Below are positions 1-8,246 of a DNA stretch of 20,000 bases, one piece after another. The DNA is taken from positions 58,615 through 78,614 of IMG/VR virus record IMGVR_UViG_3300027785_000021; one strand, written 5' to 3'. Position 1 is the stretch's first letter. Every line of letters begins with the position of its first letter. The DNA is from an uncultured virus (IMG/VR IMGVR_UViG_3300027785_000021). Taxonomy: Duplodnaviria; Heunggongvirae; Uroviricota; Caudoviricetes. The notes under the pieces are model-generated. The model was not told the origin of the DNA. It did not search any database and saw only the letters and a program-made list of their open reading frames with translations. The position numbers and the translations under genes are program-made.

Positions 1-153
1 GTCAGTTTTAGCAAACACACTTTTATCAATAGAAACTCTGTTCTTATTGATTAGCGTGCTCAACTCCTGACGTAAGTTGTTGGAAGCGTTAGATGCATCA
101 GACTTTGGTACAAGCTTAGCACTACCTCTAGTGGCATTGTTTGAATTCTGCAT
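1..153 (-). CDS. Hypothetical phage protein, partial (runs off the left edge)
   Basis: ATG at 153 after an AT-rich leader; open for 51 codons to the edge (MQNSNNATRGSAKLVPKSDASNASNNLRQELSTLINKNRVSIDKSVFAKTD); same strand as neighbours. Confidence 0.6.
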   Translation of the reverse strand, partial: MQNSNNATRGSAKLVPKSDASNASNNLRQELSTLINKNRVSIDKSVFAKTD

Positions 154-182
154 ATGTTATAATTAAAAAAATGAATACTAAT

Positions 183-437
183 TTATAGATTGTCTAGCGT
201 AATCAAGCTGTCAAGTTCAGAATATTTACCTGAATACACATTTTTGCTATCAACACCTTCTACCCAGATACTATCTTCTGATACTTCCAGGTAGTATTCA
301 ATATCAATATTGCCACCAATTTTTACATCTTCAAATCTTTTAGCAGGATCAGCATTGTATACAGCTCCTATAAATAGTCCTGTTCCAAATGCTAATACTA
401 CTGATGCAATTGCCCACTTTAAATTTTCTCTTTTCAT
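183..437 (-). CDS. Small membrane-anchored hypothetical protein (84 aa)
   Basis: Basic N-terminus followed by a hydrophobic segment (WAIASVVLAFGTGLFIGAVY); A-rich leader. Confidence 0.75.
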   Translation of the reverse strand: MKRENLKWAIASVVLAFGTGLFIGAVYNADPAKRFEDVKIGGNIDIEYYLEVSEDSIWVEGVDSKNVYSGKYSELDSLITLDNL

Positions 438-468
438 TTGTTTTATTATTGGTTATTAAATTTCTGAT

Positions 469-502
469 AAAAAAAAAGGAGGAATGTATTACACACTCCT
501 CC
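469..502 (-). terminator. Rho-independent terminator
   Basis: Minus strand GGAGGAGUGU-GUAAU-ACAUUCCUCC followed by U9, just downstream of the 525..815 gene. Confidence 0.85.
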
Positions 503-524
503 TCCTTGCTTTAACTTCCCACGG

Positions 525-815
525 TTATTGCATTATTTCTCTAAGAGGTAACTCACTGACTTCTTTCATCACTTTGGTCACGTCTCCTGGTGTCAAATAA
601 CCTATAACATCACAAGTAATAGGTGTATCATACACAAGGGTAGACTCTTTGTCTTTAGGTCCCATGTGTATTACTGCAAGTTCATACAAACCTTCCTTAC
701 CACCCTTAGTGTATTCTCCACGTATAACAGACACACCATAGTGGTTGTCAAAAAGATGATGAGAATATTCACCCATCCACTCATTGTTTTCAAATTTCAA
801 GTCTTCAAATGTCAT
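525..815 (-). CDS. Conserved phage hypothetical protein (96 aa)
   Basis: Pattern F.N.YG.SV...Y..GG..GLYELAV...YDTPIT.DV.G.L resembles a small uncharacterised protein common in phages (recognised from memory). Confidence 0.8.
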   Translation of the reverse strand: MTFEDLKFENNEWMGEYSHHLFDNHYGVSVIRGEYTKGGKEGLYELAVIHMGPKDKESTLVYDTPITCDVIGYLTPGDVTKVMKEVSELPLREIMQ

Positions 816-844
816 ATTTTTGATTTATAAGTTACTATTTTGTA

Positions 845-946
845 GATCCCCTCTGTACTCAGTTGTAACCTATAGGTAGTATGTGTTATATACATACATC
901 TAATTTCGATTACAACTGCCTGACCTTGGGAATCAGGAATGGTACA
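845..946 (-). ncRNA. Candidate structured RNA: three-way junction with pseudoknot
   Basis: Stems 854-858/942-946, 860-868/910-918 (9 bp perfect), 919-923/933-937, 879-884/892-897. Loop UUCCC can pair with the 3' GGGGA; that pairing has G-U on the minus strand but a C-A mismatch on plus. Confidence 0.5.
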
Positions 947-948
947 TT

Positions 949-980
949 AAAAATAGACTACCCTACTAGAGAGTAGTCTA
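949..980 (-). terminator. Rho-independent terminator
   Basis: Minus strand UAGACUACUCU-CUAGU-AGGGUAGUCUA followed by U5. Confidence 0.75.
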
Positions 981-1169
981 TAACACAGTTTGTTATGAGC
1001 ACTGTATAAGCTGTTAGCTTTTTGAGCTGTTATCCATAGCTTGGAGAAAACATCAGTTAGTTCACTATTACCACCACAGTAATATCACCTAACCTAGTTT
1101 TTTTCTTTGTTTGACTGTTGGTTAGACAGCTTAAGGGAATAAAAGAAGCTATATTAAAATCCCTTTTCG

Positions 1170-1290
1170 TACTCTCACAAGGTTGCAACCCTTGACTTAA
1201 TTTTCCATACCACTGATGGTGTGCAAGTTACTGCCAATATAAATTGTATTCTTTATACACCTCTTCAGGTGTCCTGCTTGGATGAGAGTA
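1170..1290. ncRNA. Candidate structured RNA with tRNA-like acceptor/T-arm geometry
   Basis: 8-bp closing stem 1170-1177/1283-1290 directly abutting a 5-bp stem with 7-nt loop (1178-1194); further hairpins at 1206-1223 and 1257-1272. Confidence 0.4.
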
Positions 1291-1431
1291 ATAGGTTGTT
1301 TCAGTAGTTCCACAAGGGAACTTAACGCATACGCCATGAGTATCTAAACTCTGAGGGCAACAACAATGTATACTTAAATCAGGACTCTTACCTGCAAATC
1401 CCTACATAGTCAATAGGAATGGCTTTCTCAT

Positions 1432-1453
1432 AAAAAACTGACTTGCAAATCAG
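1432..1453 (-). terminator. Rho-independent terminator
   Basis: Minus strand CUGAUU-UGCA-AGUCAG followed by U6, downstream of 1482..1703. Confidence 0.6.
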
Positions 1454-1481
1454 AATAATATGATAAGAAAAAAGGGAGAAC

Positions 1482-1703
1482 TTAATCTCCCATATCAACA
1501 GAGTACGCAATCCTTTTAACAGGATCAACATATAGACAGGATGAACCTGACCTATTACTAAATGCTTTCTCATAATTACCCTTAGGAAGAGTAATACCAG
1601 AGTTAAGCCAACCAAGCCAATTAACTCCTTGTGCTAACATATGTTGTTTAGCTTCTTCATAGGAGTAATACTTATCAATGGTAACTAATAGAATGTTTGT
1701 CAT
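1482..1703 (-). CDS. Hypothetical phage protein (73 aa)
   Basis: ATG start, protein-like composition, followed by a terminator. Confidence 0.7.
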   Translation of the reverse strand: MTNILLVTIDKYYSYEEAKQHMLAQGVNWLGWLNSGITLPKGNYEKAFSNRSGSSCLYVDPVKRIAYSVDMGD

Positions 1704-1773
1704 AGACGTGGGTTTTAATGTGGTTAATAGCTATATAGTACGTAAATTCATTGTGTTATTGTGGCAAAAAACT

Positions 1774-1820
1774 AAAAGCAAAGAAAGGTATAGTGAGGGA
1801 CTGATCCCCCACTCTTACCT
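1774..1820 (-). terminator. Rho-independent terminator
   Basis: Minus strand AGUGGGGGA-UCAG-UCCCUCACU (extendable by AGGUA/UACCU) followed by a U-rich tract, downstream of 1844..2341. Confidence 0.7.
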
Positions 1821-1843
1821 CCTCTAAATCAGGTAGTTACTTG

Positions 1844-2341
1844 TTATTCACCACCTGGCAACATGCCTTTACCACTCTCAAGTGCTTTAGACGCGCTAAC
1901 CTCTGCTTGATTATCGTGAGAAACATTCACATCATGCAATTGATCAGCAGTATCCCACTTAACAAAGCGTAAAATACGTTCTCCATTGCTTGTCAACGCA
2001 GGACCATCAGCACCAGCACGCTTGATATAACTATCAATAGCCTCCTCATAGCTTACGTCATCACGCAGAAACTCCTTAGCTACATCAGCAGGTACTTGAG
2101 ATTCTAGGAACTCAAGGGCTACCAATTTACCAGCTACTTGCAAACCTTTACAAGAGCTTACGAACTGCTCAAGCGTAGCAGTCTTACCGCGTAATAAGCA
2201 CGTGCGCTTAACTTCGCGAATCCATCCAGCGGTCATTACAATAGCACTTTGCTCTAATTGCACATAACCAAAATCAGCGTTTGAATCATACGCTGTCACT
2301 ACAGATCCCTTCTTTCCAGGGACAATTCTTACATTACTCAT
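1844..2341 (-). CDS. Hypothetical protein (165 aa), paralogue of 3445..3936
   Basis: Shared blocks GWIR..KRTCL.RG, PADVAK..LRDDV, KRAG.DG, RI.RF, SHDN.AEV.ASKA. Confidence 0.9.
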   Translation of the reverse strand: MSNVRIVPGKKGSVVTAYDSNADFGYVQLEQSAIVMTAGWIREVKRTCLLRGKTATLEQFVSSCKGLQVAGKLVALEFLESQVPADVAKEFLRDDVSYEEAIDSYIKRAGADGPALTSNGERILRFVKWDTADQLHDVNVSHDNQAEVSASKALESGKGMLPGGE

Positions 2342-2373
2342 ACATCAAGAGTTTAAATTTATACTGAGTTCAA

Positions 2374-2389
2374 TGGGGGTTGCTGTATT
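2374..2389 (-). promoter_or_regulatory. Repeated upstream box TGGGGGTTGCTGTATT (minus: AATACAGCAACCCCCA), copy 1
   Basis: Exact 16-bp match to 4027-4042; lies 33 bp upstream of the 2341 start. Confidence 0.55.
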
Positions 2390-2604
2390 GGACAGATCAA
2401 CGTGTTGTACACCATTCCCCATGGGTTGTTTATTACCTTTCATCACCCTGGGGAAAAAACTGCATGCGTATCGTATGTCAACCTACATTCCACCATTCAT
2501 CTCCACCAAGAGGACAAAAAACTGCACAACTTGACGCAACGTGTGACAGAGTGTACTCCATCATCTATGCATCGTGTGTGCAGTTTGTCCCCAATGGGTG
2601 GTTA

Positions 2605-2844
2605 TTAGTAGCTCATGGGTTCCCCCATCTGGTTCTCCATTGAAGCTACATCAGCATCAATAGCTTTTTGCAAATGATGGCTTAATAATTCAAGAGCAAC
2701 TGTTGCACCTGCTAGTCTTTCAAAGCTTAGTTTTTTACTAAGTACTGAATAGCCACTAGCATCAATAGCTTTCTTGTCTTTATTAAGTTGATCAATTCTT
2801 GCATCAATCATAGCTACAACATCAATCAAAGTTCCTTTGTCCAT
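2605..2844 (-). CDS. Hypothetical helical protein (79 aa)
   Basis: More likely start MDKGTLID at 2844 (A-rich leader) than the 2907 start in the track; amphipathic helical sequence. Confidence 0.7.
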   Translation of the reverse strand: MDKGTLIDVVAMIDARIDQLNKDKKAIDASGYSVLSKKLSFERLAGATVALELLSHHLQKAIDADVASMENQMGEPMSY

Positions 2845-3045
2845 AATACATAGTTTTAAAATACAGGGTGAGATACAGCACCCTGTTAACTGTTTATTTT
2901 GAGCCAAGCATTGGCATTAGCATACACGCCCAGAAGACGCACATGAATCCAACTGCTTGAAGCATGTGAGAGCCAAAGCTCATCAGCAAGCCACTAAATA
3001 CCCCTAGACATAACACTGCCCAGAGGTATAAGATTACTGTCTTTG

Positions 3046-3378
3046 TCATACCTTGCCATAGTTTTTAAGGGTGACAGAAACAGACTCAGATAGTTCAGAG
3101 TCATGTACCTCAGTGAACTTGCTTCTACATAGTAGAACAAACTCACGTGGATGACTCTTGTGTTTTGGATTAGTAACCCAGCACACATTCAGATTCAGGT
3201 GTAGACCTGATACTGTGGAGGCAAGAGGAATGACAACATAGCGTCCATTCTTCATATTGCCAATAGCGTATCTAACGCCATCTGACTCCTCATGCAGAAA
3301 CATATTTTGTATCTGCTTATCTTTCATGAACTCTGCAAGAGGTTGTGAGTCCATGAATGTAAAATTGTACTTACACAT
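3046..3378 (-). CDS. Hypothetical protein (110 aa)
   Basis: ATG preceded by an A-rich leader (TTTAAAACAAATTACT); co-oriented with neighbours. Confidence 0.65.
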   Translation of the reverse strand: MCKYNFTFMDSQPLAEFMKDKQIQNMFLHEESDGVRYAIGNMKNGRYVVIPLASTVSGLHLNLNVCWVTNPKHKSHPREFVLLCRSKFTEVHDSELSESVSVTLKNYGKV

Positions 3379-3397
3379 AGTAATTTGTTTTAAAGAT

Positions 3398-3434
3398 TAA
3401 TAAAAGAGAAGCACGCCTATTTGACGTGCCTCTC
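3398..3434 (-). terminator. Rho-independent terminator
   Basis: Minus strand GAGAGGCACGUC-AAAUA-GGCGUGCUUCUC followed by UUUUAUU, immediately after the 3445 stop. Confidence 0.8.
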
Positions 3435-3444
3435 ATAGGACTGT

Positions 3445-3936
3445 TTAGAATGGTGCGTCCTCTTTCTTAACACCACCTGCTTTGGAAGCAGTCACCTCAG
3501 CGACATTGTCATGAGAGATGGTCATGTCAGTAATGATAGCAGCGCCATCATACTCACAGAATCTCACAATGCGTTTGCCACCTCTAGTGAGTAGCACGCC
3601 ATCCTGACCTGCGCGTTTAACATATGGCTCAATAGCCTCGTCAAACGTCACGTCATCACGCAAGTTGGCTTTAGCCACATCTGCAGGAATTTCATCCTCC
3701 AAATACTCGCGCACTGCAATGCGTCCTGGAAGAGACTTGGTTGCAGCGACCAATTTCTCCAAACGCTCAACTGTACCTCTCATGAGGCAGGTGCGTTTAG
3801 AATCACGTATCCAACCGCCATCAAAGACAGTAGCTACGGTTTCCAGAACAATGTATCCATACTCCTTGTTAGTAGCATAGACGTTAACTAATACTCCCTT
3901 AGTATTAGCTTTGATAGTTACAGCGTTTGTTGCCAT
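3445..3936 (-). CDS. Hypothetical protein (163 aa), paralogue of 1844..2341; SSB-like acidic-PF tail
   Basis: Start reassigned to MATNAV at 3936 by alignment with the paralogue; C-terminus KKEDAPF. Confidence 0.9.
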   Translation of the reverse strand: MATNAVTIKANTKGVLVNVYATNKEYGYIVLETVATVFDGGWIRDSKRTCLMRGTVERLEKLVAATKSLPGRIAVREYLEDEIPADVAKANLRDDVTFDEAIEPYVKRAGQDGVLLTRGGKRIVRFCEYDGAAIITDMTISHDNVAEVTASKAGGVKKEDAPF

Positions 3937-3948
3937 AATCGTGGGAAT

Positions 3949-4018
3949 GGTTGACCTGCACCAAAAGGTTAAATTAAAATTGTGTACTATAATTCTAAAG
4001 GCCATAGTACGTATGCCT
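3949..4018 (-). repeat. Leader repeat copy A with covarying hairpin
   Basis: Imperfect ~70-bp direct repeat of 4314-4387; stem 3984-3990/4004-4010, loop AATTCTAAAGGCC. Confidence 0.8.
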
Positions 4019-4026
4019 GAATATCT

Positions 4027-4042
4027 TGGGGGTTGCTGTATT
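4027..4042 (-). promoter_or_regulatory. Repeated upstream box TGGGGGTTGCTGTATT, copy 2
   Basis: Exact match to 2374-2389; 4021-4042 also matches 4621-4642 at 19/22. Confidence 0.55.
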
Positions 4043-4044
4043 TG

Positions 4045-4302
4045 TTAGATAACTTGTATCCACTCTACATCACCATGCTTGTCATACTGCAATTCAGCAT
4101 TGCGCAGGTAGTGAAACTCCTTGCCATCAATTCTGCTCTTGAATGTTGGAGTAGAACTGATGAGTCTTTCAAGGATGTCTATTGAACCTTTGATCTGCAT
4201 CGTAAGTGAGTTACTTAAGTCATGTAACTCTAGAATGCCATAGGCCTTATCATCAGTGATGTGATCAAGGACTACTGTTGGGTTTGTGATTATAACTCGC
4301 AT
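4045..4302 (-). CDS. Hypothetical protein (85 aa)
   Basis: Start MRVIITNP at 4302 sits at essentially the same distance from the leader repeat as the 3936 start. Confidence 0.7.
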   Translation of the reverse strand: MRVIITNPTVVLDHITDDKAYGILELHDLSNSLTMQIKGSIDILERLISSTPTFKSRIDGKEFHYLRNAELQYDKHGDVEWIQVI

Positions 4303-4313
4303 AACATAGGTGT

Positions 4314-4387
4314 GGTTGACCTGAAGTACCACAAGGTTCTAAATTAAAATGTGCATTGTAATTCTAATGGCCACAATGCTAATGCCT
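4314..4387 (-). repeat. Leader repeat copy B with covarying hairpin
   Basis: Stem 4353-4359/4373-4379, loop AATTCTAATGGCC. Confidence 0.8.
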
Positions 4388-4620
4388 ATCATGAGTAATC
4401 ATGTACGTAAGAGAGTAGGACAACAGTTAATAGAGTATCACAGAGAGATGATTAGTCTCCCTGTGGCTCGTCCTGCGCAGGCACTTGGCATCCCACCAAG
4501 TCTTTGAAATCACATGCAGTTGTTTCTGTAGTAAGCGTATGCTTCTGACAGAGACAATGCAATGATTTGTACTCCTGCAATGTAGTATGTTTTGTACATT
4601 GTATAGGTTTTTTGTCCTGG

Positions 4621-4666
4621 ATATCATGGGGGGTGCTGTGTTCTGGCGTGGACTGGGGGAGCTGTA
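4621..4666 (-). promoter_or_regulatory. Degenerate copies 3 and 4 of the G5-GCTGT box
   Basis: ATATCATGGGGGGTGCTGTGTT (4621-4642) and TGGGGGAGCTGTA (4654-4666). Confidence 0.4.
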
Positions 4667-4776
4667 GCATAGACAGTACCCATAATCTCTTCCTCAGAGA
4701 AATTTCAGTACTTGAAAAATTTTTATATAGAAATTTTTTTTTGTAACTTATAGTGTAAACATAAACACATTGCGCA

Positions 4777-5682
4777 ATGAAAACACAAAAAATTAACTTA
4801 ATTAATGTAGACTTCTCTGGGTTTTCTGCTACTGAAGCAGATCGTAGAGATGGTGCAGTTGGCCACGTAAACTATGCGTTGTCACAAATTGATTTAGCTA
4901 CTGGTATTGACACAGATTATAATGCTCGTGGTAGAGTATTATTTAACATCTTAGGACAAGCTTCTAATAACGATGGTATTAATAGTGGTAGTTCTCTTGT
5001 TATTGGTCAGAAGTATATTATTGACTATTTAGAAGAAGGTGATGATTTTACTAATGTAGGTGCTGCTGAGAATGCTGTTGGGGTAGTGTTCACTGCTACT
5101 GGTGAAACTCCTGACGTTTGGAATGGAAGCGTTTTACATGAAAACTTATCCAAAGATATTAGTGATATTGTTAGGAAGTATAGTGATGCAGAATTTTACA
5201 AATGGGTATTTCTTGCAGATAGTGCACTTGCAAGTTTTAATAAAGGATTTGAATATATTGGTGGACCATCTGTGCTTACAGGTGATGACATGTTTGATTA
5301 TATTTCTGTTGATCCTGAGCTTGTTACTGAAAATGTAGAATATTACTATGGAAATATAACTCTACTTAACATGGATACTAGAATTTATGATTCTACATTT
5401 CCAGTACTTAATTTTAGTACGTATACAGATCTTGAGATGGATCAATCATTTCTTGTATTAGAAGGTGTTGATTTTAGAAATTACACAGTATGGTCATCTC
5501 CATTGGCAGGGGTTTATCGTAGCCTTGATGCAGGTTCAGCATACTTGTCAGAATTTGTTAATTCAGAAGATGGTAAAATTTACATTCCTGTAGTTGATAC
5601 AAAGATAGGATTGAGATTTGACTTTGAGATTCGCTTGTATGACTATGTGGCGCCAGTTCCTGTAGTTGATGTTGATAGGTAA
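4777..5682 (+). CDS. Putative virion structural/fibre-type protein (301 aa, acidic)
   Basis: Long ORF containing G.KY.I...GDDFTNVGA..N.VG..F.ATG, a motif type seen in phage virion fibre proteins (from memory). Confidence 0.55.
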   Translation: MKTQKINLINVDFSGFSATEADRRDGAVGHVNYALSQIDLATGIDTDYNARGRVLFNILGQASNNDGINSGSSLVIGQKYIIDYLEEGDDFTNVGAAENAVGVVFTATGETPDVWNGSVLHENLSKDISDIVRKYSDAEFYKWVFLADSALASFNKGFEYIGGPSVLTGDDMFDYISVDPELVTENVEYYYGNITLLNMDTRIYDSTFPVLNFSTYTDLEMDQSFLVLEGVDFRNYTVWSSPLAGVYRSLDAGSAYLSEFVNSEDGKIYIPVVDTKIGLRFDFEIRLYDYVAPVPVVDVDR

Positions 5683-5699
5683 TTTACTCTAGAAAGAGG

Positions 5700-5734
5700 A
5701 AAGGGGGTAGTTGCTGATGCTACCCCTTTTTTTT
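5700..5734 (+). terminator. Rho-independent terminator between convergent genes (possibly bidirectional)
   Basis: GGGGUAGU-UGCUGAU-GCUACCCC followed by U8; purine/A-rich on the 5' side. Confidence 0.85.
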
Positions 5735-6227
5735 ATGACCAGTGGTTATTAGGTTTTTCCCAATAGAATTCTAGTTCGCGATCTGAGTGTTTGTAGTATC
5801 TTCCTACTACATCTGATTTATAGATACTATCTATGTTTTCAAACAATGCCGCTGTGTAGTAATCTATACCAGCCACTTCTAAGCATTCTGTGATCCATGT
5901 ATAGTTCTTACCAGTAATCACACCTGCTTCTATGAGGATTACGTTTTTGTATTTTTGAAATTTACGAATACCCATAGAGCTTGTTTGATCTAGCATTTGC
6001 TTTATGTAAATGTTTTTGTCCTCATCTGGGTATGGTACGTCAATGAAGGTTATATCTAGCATTTCACCATCTTTACTCAAATGATGTGCTGCATGCATTC
6101 CTACTGTTGCGCTGTAATCTGGACTTACTATGACTACAAGTGTATTACTTGGGTGGGTGTCAAGTTTTTCTAAACCTCTACAAAAAGATTTGAGTACTGT
6201 CCATTCTAAATCACGTGATACATACAT
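5733..6227 (-). CDS. Phosphoribosyltransferase (type I PRTase)-like protein
   Basis: KNVILIEAGVITGKNY resembles the PRPP-binding loop (hhhhDDhhxTGxT); alpha/beta pattern; ends EFYWE like the F/YPWE ending of purine PRTases. Confidence 0.55.
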   Translation of the reverse strand: MYVSRDLEWTVLKSFCRGLEKLDTHPSNTLVVIVSPDYSATVGMHAAHHLSKDGEMLDITFIDVPYPDEDKNIYIKQMLDQTSSMGIRKFQKYKNVILIEAGVITGKNYTWITECLEVAGIDYYTAALFENIDSIYKSDVVGRYYKHSDRELEFYWEKPNNHWS

Positions 6228-6256
6228 ATTAATAGTTTTGATAAAGATAATATAAA

Positions 6257-6287
6257 TTTGTTTAGTTTAAACTTTTAAGTATATTTG
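6257..6287 (+). promoter_or_regulatory. Bacteroidota housekeeping-sigma promoter (-33 TTTG / -7 TAnnTTTG)
   Basis: TTTG 6257-6260, 19-bp spacer, TATATTTG 6280-6287, 22 bp before the ATG at 6310; spacer contains the palindrome AGTTTAAACT. Confidence 0.75.
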
Positions 6288-6309
6288 TCAAAACTTTAAT
6301 AAAATTTTT

Positions 6310-6537
6310 ATGGTAGAAGAAGAAACAAAAGATGTATCACGCGAAGATGTAGTAGCTTGGTACAAAGACCAACTTGAATTGGCAACGTTGCGTGCTGATC
6401 TTGCAGAGCAACAAGCACGTGCGACAGGTTATGAGTCACAACGTTTGCAACACATGGTGATGATTGCTAACATTAAAACAGCTAGTGAGAACATTGCTGA
6501 AGAAGAAGATGAATCACCAGAAAATATTAAATCTTAA
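6310..6537 (+). CDS. Small coiled-coil hypothetical protein (75 aa)
   Basis: First gene after the promoter; heptad-like helix and acidic tail. Confidence 0.8.
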   Translation: MVEEETKDVSREDVVAWYKDQLELATLRADLAEQQARATGYESQRLQHMVMIANIKTASENIAEEEDESPENIKS

Positions 6538-6548
6538 AAGTTTAAAGT

Positions 6549-6824
6549 ATGAAGTTAGTAGGAAGACGCGTTTTATTAAACGTACCAAAAAGACCAGAGT
6601 CAATTATTGAGTTGACTCCAGAGACAGAGCGTGAGTTAGAAATGAAGATGATAGATAAGTGGATAGCACTTGAAGTCTTTGAAACAGGAGAAGATGTGGA
6701 AACTGTAAAATCAGGTGACAAGGTTTATGTACCTTCTTCTGCTTTACAGAATGCAGAACGTATACCTGTGGATGGTGATACAAAAATGATGATTGCAGAA
6801 TTTGACATTGCAATTGTATGGTAA
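6549..6824 (+). CDS. groES: GroES-like co-chaperonin
   Basis: 91 aa; MKLVGRRVLL (cf. PLxDRVLV), GEDVETVKSGDKV (cf. VKVGDxV), MIAEFDIAIV (cf. ilxExDIlA). Confidence 0.75.
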   Translation: MKLVGRRVLLNVPKRPESIIELTPETERELEMKMIDKWIALEVFETGEDVETVKSGDKVYVPSSALQNAERIPVDGDTKMMIAEFDIAIVW

Positions 6825-6842
6825 ACTTAAAAATCAAATAAG

Positions 6843-7193
6843 ATGAATACAGAAGAAAAAAACCTAGAAACAATTAATGAAAAACCAACATTAGAACAAC
6901 CAACAATTGTTGATGAACAACTAATAGACATGTCAAAAGTTTCCACAGAGAGTCGTGGAGAGAAGTTGGTTGGCATTAATTTTAATCCATCTAGAGATAA
7001 TGATGTTGACACAGTAAAACGCGCGTGTGCGTACTTGATTGATGTAATTGAAAAGCATCGCGAGAATTGCATGCATGATGGAAGCTTGACCACAAACAAA
7101 GAATTTTTGATGAACCATGCTCTTGGTGAGATTATCAATGCGCAGATGAATGTTGTTAAGGTGCTTACTTTTACAGAAGATGGAAGTAAGTAA
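6843..7193 (+). CDS. Helical-hairpin phage protein, possibly Acb2/Tad1-like nucleotide sponge
   Basis: GE..VGINFNPS...VD.VK...A.LID followed by a second helix ending A...I..AQM.VVK. The CDS is clear; the family assignment is tentative. Confidence 0.45.
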   Translation: MNTEEKNLETINEKPTLEQPTIVDEQLIDMSKVSTESRGEKLVGINFNPSRDNDVDTVKRACAYLIDVIEKHRENCMHDGSLTTNKEFLMNHALGEIINAQMNVVKVLTFTEDGSK

Positions 7194-7569
7194 AGTTGAA
7201 AAAAAGTACAGATTGACTCATTATGACCTGGTTAAATATCAGGTCATAACTGAGTTTGTGTTCTTTAAGAAAGAGAATCTTATTGACACTGATCTGGAAC
7301 TACTTACGCTTTTGGCACTTGAAGGACCTATTGATTTAACTAAGTTTTGTAACACTGTGGTTAAGAAAACATATCCTGAAATAAACCCAGAAGAATTTGG
7401 AGTAAGGGCGCAGAACATACGTAATAAGTTAACTAAACTTGAGAAACGTGGTATGATACGCAAATCTGAGGCATATAAAAAGACAATAGAAATTGCTATG
7501 TCAGTTCCTGTTTTAAAGTCTGGTAATGTAATGTTGGACTACAAATTTCTAGCACTTGCGACCAGTTAA
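7180..7569 (+). CDS. Winged helix-turn-helix DNA-binding protein (129 aa)
   Basis: Start MEVSKVEK at 7180; LELLTLLAL...RAQNIRNKLTKLEKRGMIRK resembles MarR-type wHTH recognition helix and wing. Confidence 0.6.
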   Translation: MEVSKVEKKYRLTHYDLVKYQVITEFVFFKKENLIDTDLELLTLLALEGPIDLTKFCNTVVKKTYPEINPEEFGVRAQNIRNKLTKLEKRGMIRKSEAYKKTIEIAMSVPVLKSGNVMLDYKFLALATS

Positions 7570-7984
7570 ACGTAAACAGATTTCTGAAAAAGTTGCAGAA
7601 AAGTTAAATTTATCTGTTGAGACAGTTGATGAAATAATATCATGTTATTATAATTCTATTCAAAGACAACTTAGTAATTTAGCTTATCCACAAATTTCTG
7701 TAGGATTTCTGGGTACTTTTTTTATTAAACGTAACAAGTTAGAAAACAAGTTAATGATATATGAAAAAGCACTTGCAAAATTGGAAGATATTATTGAACC
7801 AAATCTATCACAATTCAAATCAATCAAAGAACTAAAAGAAGACATCTTGAAATTTAAAAGTATGATTGAAATGCTTGATGAAATGGATGATAAAAAGATT
7901 ACAAAGAACAACGAAAAACAAATTTATAAACTTAAAAATTATGAGTCTAATAAACCTGTGGAAACAAAAAGGAAAGATATTTGA
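7556..7984 (+). CDS. HU/IHF-like DNA-binding protein with C-terminal coiled coil
   Basis: KQISEKVAEKLNLSVETVDEII...QISVGFLGTFFIK matches the HU/IHF N-terminal helices and hxhxGFGxF motif; TTG start overlapping the upstream gene. Confidence 0.7.
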   Translation: MRPVKRKQISEKVAEKLNLSVETVDEIISCYYNSIQRQLSNLAYPQISVGFLGTFFIKRNKLENKLMIYEKALAKLEDIIEPNLSQFKSIKELKEDILKFKSMIEMLDEMDDKKITKNNEKQIYKLKNYESNKPVETKRKDI

Positions 7985-8246
7985 AGGCGTGAAAAACAGC
8001 ATCTTCAAGCAAGAGCATATTGAAGAAATTGCTAGATCAAGAATGCTTATATGTGAGGATTGTTTTTTTATTGATAAGGAAGGTTCTAAATGCTACATGC
8101 CTGGCACGCAGCCATGCTGTGGGGATTGTGGTTGCAAATTATCATTTAAAACACGATCTTTATCATCAGAATGTCCAAAAGGAAAATGGGATGCTGTCAC
8201 TTCAGAAGAAGAAGAAGAAGCTATTATTAACAGTATAAAAGATTAA
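7941..8246 (+). CDS. Cys-rich putative metal-binding protein (101 aa)
   Basis: Start MSLINLW at 7941; R..IC..C...C......CC..CGC....K.......CP.GKW. Confidence 0.75.
   Translation: MSLINLWKQKGKIFEGVKNSIFKQEHIEEIARSRMLICEDCFFIDKEGSKCYMPGTQPCCGDCGCKLSFKTRSLSSECPKGKWDAVTSEEEEEAIINSIKD

Follow-up and report, generated by a model that had tools for sequence, protein, structure and literature searches.

A predicted type-P1 twister ribozyme with a P5 arm, and its relatives on uncultured phage contigs

Twister ribozymes are built from helices P1, P2 and P4, to which P0, P3 and P5 may be added (PMC5408937). According to the passages of that paper cited here, cleavage occurs at a U-A step beside P1, in which the A is highly conserved and the U less so, P2 is formed by four Watson-Crick pairs, and a catalytic guanine is present. 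The loop of P4 makes two long-range contacts, T1 (three pairs with the 3' strand of L1) and T2 (two pairs with a dinucleotide of L2) (PMC5408937). P1 is dispensable for cleavage (PMC5408937; PMC11662667), and the tested twisters that carry P5 all cleaved above 0.80 (PMC11662667). Among annotated twisters, P3 occurs in 78% and P5 in 1% (PMC6154101). One published example reads, in order, L1 UAA, P2 CUCC, L2 GC, P3, P4 CCG, L4 GUCCCAAGC, P4 CCGG, L2 GUAAA, P2 GGAG and L1 GAGGG (PMC8501958, Table 1).

Bacterial hammerhead, twister and pistol ribozymes located near phage genes have been proposed to process polycistronic transcripts (PMC6765202), and a crAss-like phage of Cellulophaga produces abundant early intergenic transcripts that are high from the earliest time point (bioRxiv 10.1101/2020.03.07.982082). 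A literature search returned no description of twisters in crAss-like phages among the entries and passages it covered; supplements, such as the candidate lists of PMC11662667, might hold related environmental sequences.

The element and its setting

The element lies in a stretch of 20,000 nucleotides (the window), which forms the final 20 kb of an IMG/VR record of 78.6 kb (IMGVR_UViG_3300027785_000021) with an estimated completeness of 62%. Terminase, portal and major head proteins of the record match phage families, and the terminase has ~25% identity with its counterparts in crAss-like phages of Bacteroides, Flavobacterium and Cellulophaga, so that "distantly crAss-like" is a fair description. 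The genes around the element, including the one directly downstream (815..525), are small and without a Pfam match. Judging by the size and orientation of the genes, we infer that this is the early arm of the genome, as the initial annotation called it.

That annotation had placed a pseudoknotted RNA on the minus strand at 845..946, and its transcription of the letters agrees exactly with the sequence in a pair-by-pair check. It proposed a closing stem (its P1), a hairpin (its P2), a long arm (its P3) and a pairing between the hairpin loop and the 3' tail; all four are confirmed, and they are kept in more than 100 distinct copies on uncultured phage contigs. Its interval captures the right element and is slightly short, missing 3 nt at the 5' side: the conserved unit begins with U949, A948 and A947, and its core ends at G849. 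A covariance model of the family (R1) matches window positions 957..841 (102.4 bits, E 2.4e-27), and the R1 search returns a single copy in the whole 78.6-kb record. The element was also correctly placed between a terminator and a gene, as it is flanked by the terminator-like hairpin 981..953 and the ORF 815..525.

In twister terms, P1 of the initial annotation corresponds to P2, its P2 to P4, its P3 to the optional P5 and its loop-tail pseudoknot to T1. With these names, the features are as follows.

849..949, minus strand: predicted twister-type ribozyme core, from U949 (5' of the scissile bond) to G849 (last G of T1)
947..949, minus strand: 5' strand of L1 (UAA); predicted cut between U949 and A948, with A948 as putative general acid
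942..946, minus strand: 5' strand of P2 (UGUAC), pairing with GUACA 858-854
938..941, minus strand: 5' strand of L2 (CAUU); C941 together with C942 is the candidate T2 partner of G925 and G924 in L4
919..937, minus strand: P4 hairpin, CCUGA 937-933 pairing with UCAGG 923-919 around loop L4 (UUCCCAAGG, 932-924)
860..918, minus strand: P5 arm, with a base of 10-11 bp and a variable apex containing a 6-bp hairpin
854..859, minus strand: junction A859, then the 3' strand of P2 (GUACA 858-854), pairing with 946-942
849..853, minus strand: 3' strand of L1 (GAGGG); G853 as putative general base, then A852, then G851-G849 pairing with C928-C930 as T1
847..848, minus strand: 3' strand of a weak P1, G848 and A847 opposite U950 and U951
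953..981, minus strand: 12-bp hairpin followed by a U run (terminator scan), terminator-like or an optional twister P0, ending 3 nt before the cleavage U
525..815, minus strand: downstream gene of 96 aa, PHROG 4074 (unknown function), with its ATG 33 nt past the ribozyme core

Roles of the L1 residues are taken from passages of PMC5408937 and PMC11662667. The P5 base starts at 918 with CAGUUGUAA (in a longer reading, CAGUUGUAAU) and pairs with a strand that finishes in UUACAACUG at 860, while the tail GAGGGG occupies 853-848 of the minus strand.

Folded alone, 845-946 reaches -29.3 kcal/mol (z = -2.76), a stability matched by none of 200 shuffles, and in its minimum-energy fold a pairing of GAUUCCC with GGGGAUC displaces the P4 hairpin. 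The minimum-energy fold of 960..835 (-32.5 kcal/mol) includes P2, P4 and P5, and the apex structure of P5 given above is that of these two predicted folds. That the element is not a chance arrangement follows from the comparison across copies described below, not from folding energy.

Twister core features and covariation

Based on the nucleotides that are conserved and the pairs that covary, the element is likely, at roughly 80%, to be a self-cleaving ribozyme of the twister class, type P1, that has a P5 arm and lacks P3, and to be carried on a minus-strand read-through transcript. In the window its parts follow each other as L1 UAA, P2 UGUA(C), L2 (C)CAUU, P4 CCUGA, L4 UUCCCAAGG, P4 UCAGG, an extra arm, A, P2 (G)UACA and L1 GAGGG. 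We take the extra arm, which is located between P4 and the 3' strand of P2, to be P5, in keeping with the layout of the class as drawn in 2014 and with the column order of Table 1 in PMC8501958. The initial annotation had judged by eye that the twister core was not matched. The U-A step, the L1 strands UAA and GAGGG, a P2 of 4-5 bp, a P4 with an xUCCCAAGx loop, T1 and the optional P5 overturn that exclusion.

The likeness extends over the whole core. Type-P1 twisters (Roth et al. 2014, reviewed in PMC5408937 and PMC6154101; RF03160), as characterized in the passages cited, share with the phage element the order P1-L1-P2-L2-P4-L4-P4'-L2'-P2'-L1'-P1', the L4 loop xUCCCAAGx, a CCC:GGG T1 flanked by A on both sides, an invariant A after the cut site, an invariant G at the bottom of P2, a dispensable P1 and optional arms. 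The L1 strands UAA and GAGGG are identical to those of the Schistosoma twisters listed as Sma-1-15 (PMC8501958, Table 1), and UUCCCAAGG agrees with the published Schistosoma L4 GUCCCAAGC at 7 of 9 positions, with one more nucleotide (an extra U) between the closing pair and UCCCAA than in the published examples. L4 of the window also includes the TCCCAAG of the rice P4/L4 string in PMC11662667, and among the descriptors given there the element matches the "NA" cleavage site, the A as general acid, the G as general base and the "NC" of the 5' strand of PK1, the last of which fits the T2 candidate. Unlike most published twisters, the phage family lacks P3 and carries P5 in every copy, its P4 has 5 bp in place of 3 plus 1, and its candidate T2 is CC:GG as opposed to GC:GC.

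The putative catalytic residues and the T1 nucleotides are the most constant positions in the family. Among the 101 distinct aligned copies, A948 and A947 are A in all 101, and the nucleotide 5' of the predicted cut is mostly U (98 copies), with C in 2 copies and A in 1; a firm A with a looser U is the pattern that PMC5408937 gives for twister. G853 is kept in 99 of 101 copies, A852 in 101, the GGG at 851-849 in 100 and A859 in 101.

T1 positions are complementary in 101/101 copies, and the contact covaries, since a CAC loop is accompanied by a GUG tail in all 8 copies of this kind that have an intact 3' half. Scanning for variants of the middle loop C yielded 9 stretches, comprising 7 CAC/GUG members, one CUC member and one unrelated sequence; the eighth CAC/GUG copy (L098:3426-3499) was already in the alignment, and the CUC copy (L269) has lost its tail altogether.

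The T2 candidate is complementary in 100/101 copies, with one U-G, and otherwise invariant, so that it shows no covariation. Scans for variants of both loop G's gave, amid chance hits, four family members, all uncompensated (L279, L281, L287, L290); viral contigs contributed none at the first G and one at the second, and metagenome contigs three at the first. Because the first C (C942) covaries with G858 as the fifth pair of P2 (U-A in 2 copies), T2 perhaps consists of one pair only. We regard T2 as a plausible candidate.

P1 is short. In the 95 distinct copies with flanks, its positions 1-3 are paired in 73, 75 and 62 copies versus 61.5, 50.6 and 46.8 in shuffles; P1 is absent in 22 of the 95, and in the window only 2 bp are found beside the core.

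Homologues were collected and a covariance model built, as the initial annotation had proposed, and the stems and the pseudoknot were retained, with covariation in all helices and in T1. Exact matches to the 19-nt hairpin are present in 62 viral-contig stretches, 59 of which have the 3' half 21 to 252 nt downstream (4-kb flanks examined). Of the remaining three, two run into a contig end; for L077 the 3' half was not found within 3 kb, and a weak match on the same contig (L151) shows a degenerate 3' half. The 3' half alone is found in at least 121 stretches. A model built from 36 copies, with copies accepted at E <= 1e-14, retrieved 114 copies, 101 of them distinct, in 100 sources. As the bait was the P4/L4 19-mer for one copy set and the 3' half for the other, the conservation figures partly reflect how copies were retrieved; in each set only the half not used as bait is free evidence, and the UAA is free in both.

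Standard pairs make up 95.4% of the pair cells over the 101 distinct copies versus 83.9% in shuffles, with none of 500 shuffles reaching the observed value, and 21 of 27 pairs have changes on both sides; this alignment was fitted to the covariance model and is biased toward the structure, and an anchor-based, model-free count on 49 copies gives the same picture. When partners are slid by 1 to 3 columns, pairing falls to 30-48%. P2 is paired in 100% of cells, with changes on both sides in 2 of its 5 pairs: the third is C-G in 86 copies, U-A in 12 and U-G in 3, and the fifth C-G in 99 and U-A in 2. In the P4 stem (99.6% of cells paired) each of the 5 pairs shows two-sided changes, which affect 18 to 50 of the 101 copies, around a loop that is invariant except for the compensated CAC variant; copies found with the 3'-half bait display this as diverse stems (CUCAC/GUGAG, UCUAC/GUAGA, UCAGC/GCUGA, CUAGC/GCUAG and others) on a constant loop. 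The base of P5 has changes on both sides in 10/10 pairs and 96.4% of cells paired, including a G-U as pair 3 in 5 copies. Its arm spans 16 to 160 nt in the aligned copies, and loci outside this alignment have longer arms, with spacings up to 252 nt. At the short end, a natural relative of 62 nt (L153) has P5 reduced to a short hairpin.

Twister-sister has a similar stem layout and similar letters in the P4 loop (PMC5408937; PMC6154101). We rejected it as the class of this element because, in the passages cited, twister-sister has no pseudoknots, is cut on the opposite strand and lacks key twister nucleotides (PMC5408937), whereas here T1 covaries and the twister L1 is present.

A cmscan search against Rfam, also proposed in the initial annotation, produced neither a twister nor any other relevant match for the window at the gathering score or for 500-1500 at E <= 10 (hits elsewhere were snoRNA and lncRNA noise), and nothing at E <= 10 for six loci with short P5 arms. 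RF03160 (twister-P1), searched alone, detected nothing at E <= 10, whether in the phage record or in those of five relatives with short P5, and this failure extends to natural copies of 62-82 nt. Since RF03160 models mostly P3-bearing twisters and the family is without P3 and always with P5, we treat the miss as a limit of the model and not as a test of the fold. Judged by its sequence features, then, the fold class is one already described, and the novelty is a phage variant that the Rfam catalogue misses. The initial annotation's "undescribed ribozyme" accordingly stands as a structured, pseudoknotted RNA of ribozyme type and falls on the word undescribed.

Relatives, gene context and alternative readings

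The family appears to be confined to uncultured material in the databases searched. Megablast of window positions 1-8000 gave no match among GenBank phages, and blastn of 840-960 at E <= 1 found the family absent from 50,697 GenBank phage records. In 185,579 species genomes there are five stretches (L260-L264), each from a metagenome-assembled genome, and the phylum labels of these genomes differ. The contigs measure 3.5-4.6 kb in four cases and 86 kb in the fifth; they are probably phage contigs binned with bacteria, and they offer no clue to the host.

Copies vary in ways that set the core apart from its surroundings. Five loci have only the downstream gene in common (66-69% protein identity), and in these both halves of the element are nearly unchanged while its middle varies in sequence and length. 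In two loci (L009 and L010) the entire ribozyme, including the P5 apex, is 94% identical to window positions 828-953, and the flanks and a 303-aa downstream gene are unrelated, which suggests that the ribozyme unit either moves between genomes or is far more constrained than what surrounds it. Several contigs contain two or three copies each (L079, L147, L181, L088, L076, L108, L114, L125, L135, L082, L221), spaced from head-to-tail (L079) to ~1.2 kb apart.

Two kinds of variant depart from the standard layout. In the first, an insert of ~150-290 nt is located inside P4, where it separates the 5' strand from the loop, with CUCCCAAGG coming next (L146, L149, L158, L160, L164, L198, L201, L206; also L152, L173-L175, L181 and L190). 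The insert contains the conserved strings GUGGAUAUGAAGAC..., ...UAAGAUGUGAAACCAC and CUGAUUAA...UUAAUCAG together with variable hairpins. In the second (L156, L157, L167, L142), P5 and the 3' half are kept, the 5' side CCCUUUGCAC pairs with GUGCAGAGGG as a plain 10-bp helix, and both the UAA step and the CCC of the hairpin loop are missing. These four are probably non-cleaving derivatives, going by the parts they have lost, and such unknotted forms account for 4 of 82 matches in the 80 loci examined by a Hamming scan.

Such relatives raise the question of whether the element is a twister-derived scaffold that no longer cuts, its fold serving either to stabilise the RNA or to display variable arms (P5, and P4 as well in relatives) to a partner such as a protein. 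Arm sequence is indeed common to otherwise unrelated loci, as in the 94% identical P5 apex next to differing flanks, and the second kind of variant shows P5 and the 3' half persisting without a twister core. However, a scaffold would not need A948, A947, G853 or the nucleotides of T1, which are the most conserved positions, T1 changes solely in compensated form, and unknotted forms are rare among the matches. We consider the scaffold decidedly unlikely and retain the self-cleaving twister as the preferred reading.

Copies of the element are intergenic and co-oriented with their neighbours: downstream ORFs are on the same strand in 42 of 51 cases and upstream ORFs in 41 of 51. An ATG occurs 25-70 nt downstream in 18/51, and in 24/42 more than 70 nt separate the element from the start of the following ORF on its strand. 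Proteins encoded downstream (31 loci and the window) fall into 15 unrelated clusters, and no conserved terminator or start-site-masking helix was found 3' of the element across copies.

These counts bear on the possibility that the element is a ligand-sensing riboswitch or another cis-regulator of gene 815..525, as the initial annotation had offered. The element is situated in a 5' leader, 33 nt before the ATG, and its pseudoknotted junction resembles aptamer architectures. The diversity of the downstream clusters, the distance to the next ORF, the missing expression platform and the lack of any Rfam riboswitch match speak against it, and the twister core already accounts for all conserved nucleotides; a riboswitch is therefore very improbable.

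The third proposal of the initial annotation was a nuclease-resistant fold, that is, an exonuclease-resistant or 5'-end-protecting structure without chemistry of its own. A three-way junction with a pseudoknot from loop to 3' tail would suit such a role, and nothing more specific speaks for it: the particular features of protective folds were not found, and the conserved letters coincide with those of twister L1 and L4. This reading, to which we give very little weight, also overlaps with the twister assignment, as protection of the mRNA may follow from cleavage.

It is extremely unlikely that the element acts as DNA, be it in recombination, as a signal for replication or packaging, or as a hairpin promoter: conserved inverted repeats around a variable insert, in a unit found beside different genes, would suit such a role, but the compensatory changes tolerate G-U and hardly ever A-C, on one strand only, copies are co-oriented with genes, and loop-tail covariation is not required of a site in duplex DNA. 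The frequent G-U and almost absent A-C pairs instead indicate an RNA made from the minus strand, which is that of the element. Other candidates were considered by eye and dropped, namely a nested double pseudoknot of the HDV kind (its helix order differs), a retron ncRNA (no adjoining reverse transcriptase, and a closing helix of only 5 bp), tRNA-like T-loop or anticodon arms and integron attC-like or MITE-like DNA repeats.

A hairpin that ends within 6 nt of the cleavage U, 2-5 nt ahead of the predicted cut, is present upstream in 63/109 copies versus 37/109 control segments. The one in the window (981..953) has a U run, which is missing at this place in most relatives, and for that reason we read the upstream hairpin as a P0-like or end-protecting stem. 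With its U run, 981..953 might also end transcription before the ribozyme is made. Altogether, five terminator-like sites are found in 400-1900 versus 0.8 expected from shuffles. Two of these hairpins with U runs on the minus strand directly follow genes, one at 473-507 (after gene 815..525) and one at 1474-1491 (after gene 1703..1482).

Between the terminator-like hairpins 1491..1474 and 981..953, upstream of the element, is a non-coding stretch of ~500 nt, which shares several pieces with other loci. A motif of ~27 nt (UCAAGGGUUGCAACCUUGUGAGAGUAC; minus strand, 1166-1199) consists of a 5-bp hairpin with a tail. In the 62 loci, all 23 occurrences of its 19-base core GGTTGCAACCTTGTGAGAG are on the twister strand and none on the opposite one. 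The motif precedes a twister by 25 to 1142 nt, and in L093 and L103 it directly adjoins one. A 171-nt non-coding module (minus strand, 1296-1466) has 93% identity with L115 and L125, in both of which a twister ends 14 nt ahead of it, and parts of it recur in L136 and L082; it has no Rfam match, and its frame 2 is open from 1398 to 1228 (57 codons) with no start codon before codon 49. A further non-coding block (minus strand, 981-1198) has 80-84% identity with L078, L121, L126 and L110. The whole of 950-1480 looks like a mosaic of modules shuffled between phages.

A tRNA scan of the window found none. In 16 of the 62 loci (L075-L136), a tRNA-Arg(TCT) gene is encoded on the same strand 1.2-3.7 kb downstream; L081 has a tRNA with anticodon CUA, of the amber-suppressor type, and L117 has 9 tRNA genes.

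Two of the systems mentioned at the outset offer comparisons at this level. Like the ribozymes of PMC6765202, the phage copies are intergenic and may split a transcript into parts that differ in stability or translation, as proposed there; unlike them, the family is seen on uncultured phage contigs, whereas the ribozymes described in the cited passages are mostly from bacterial genomes or prophage regions. The Cellulophaga crAss-like phage (bioRxiv 10.1101/2020.03.07.982082) likewise has long non-coding stretches among its early genes, but there is no sequence match, and the passages of that preprint cited here do not mention a ribozyme.

Predicted cleavage and its meaning for the phages

In our model, a minus-strand read-through transcript would span the region of small genes and non-coding modules. 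Formation of P2, P4 and P5 and the T1 pairing of CCC (L4) with GGG (tail) are the part of this model with comparative support. The CC of L2 may in addition pair with the GG of the loop as T2, which together with T1 would bring A948 and G853 to the U949-A948 step. As expected of the class, the 2'-OH of U949 would attack its own 3' phosphate and cut the chain between U949 and A948. The upstream product would end in the 981..953 hairpin and a few U, with a 2',3'-cyclic phosphate, and the downstream mRNA would begin with a 5'-OH at A948 and carry a compact folded ribozyme, with the ATG of gene 815..525 another 33 nt on.

The predicted cleavage thus probably splits the phage transcript just ahead of the small gene 815..525, and the cut would uncouple the stability or translation of its message from the ~500-nt non-coding stretch upstream. 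Across the family, the role would be that of a general processing or insulating site and not of a sensor for a single gene.

A broader possibility, which we hold to be unlikely, is that the twister core serves as a reusable chassis that punctuates an early-region array of shuffled non-coding modules, with the P5 arm and, in relatives, the conserved P4 insert as functional cargo. If this were true, the cargo might gate cleavage, making a natural allosteric twister, or might be freed by the cut as a small, defined RNA with effects on the host.

If the twister assignment is correct, the family exposes a blind spot of the curated twister models and widens the architecture of the class, with an obligatory P5, an absent P3, an altered (candidate) second pseudoknot and acceptance of very large inserts in P4. 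For annotation, twister descriptors should be tried before non-coding gaps in these phages are called undescribed RNA classes. The biological role of twister ribozymes is described as largely open (PMC5408937; PMC6765202), and more than 100 distinct copies at comparable positions of transcription units in uncultured crAss-like phages, often several per genome, would constitute a large and uniform natural set.
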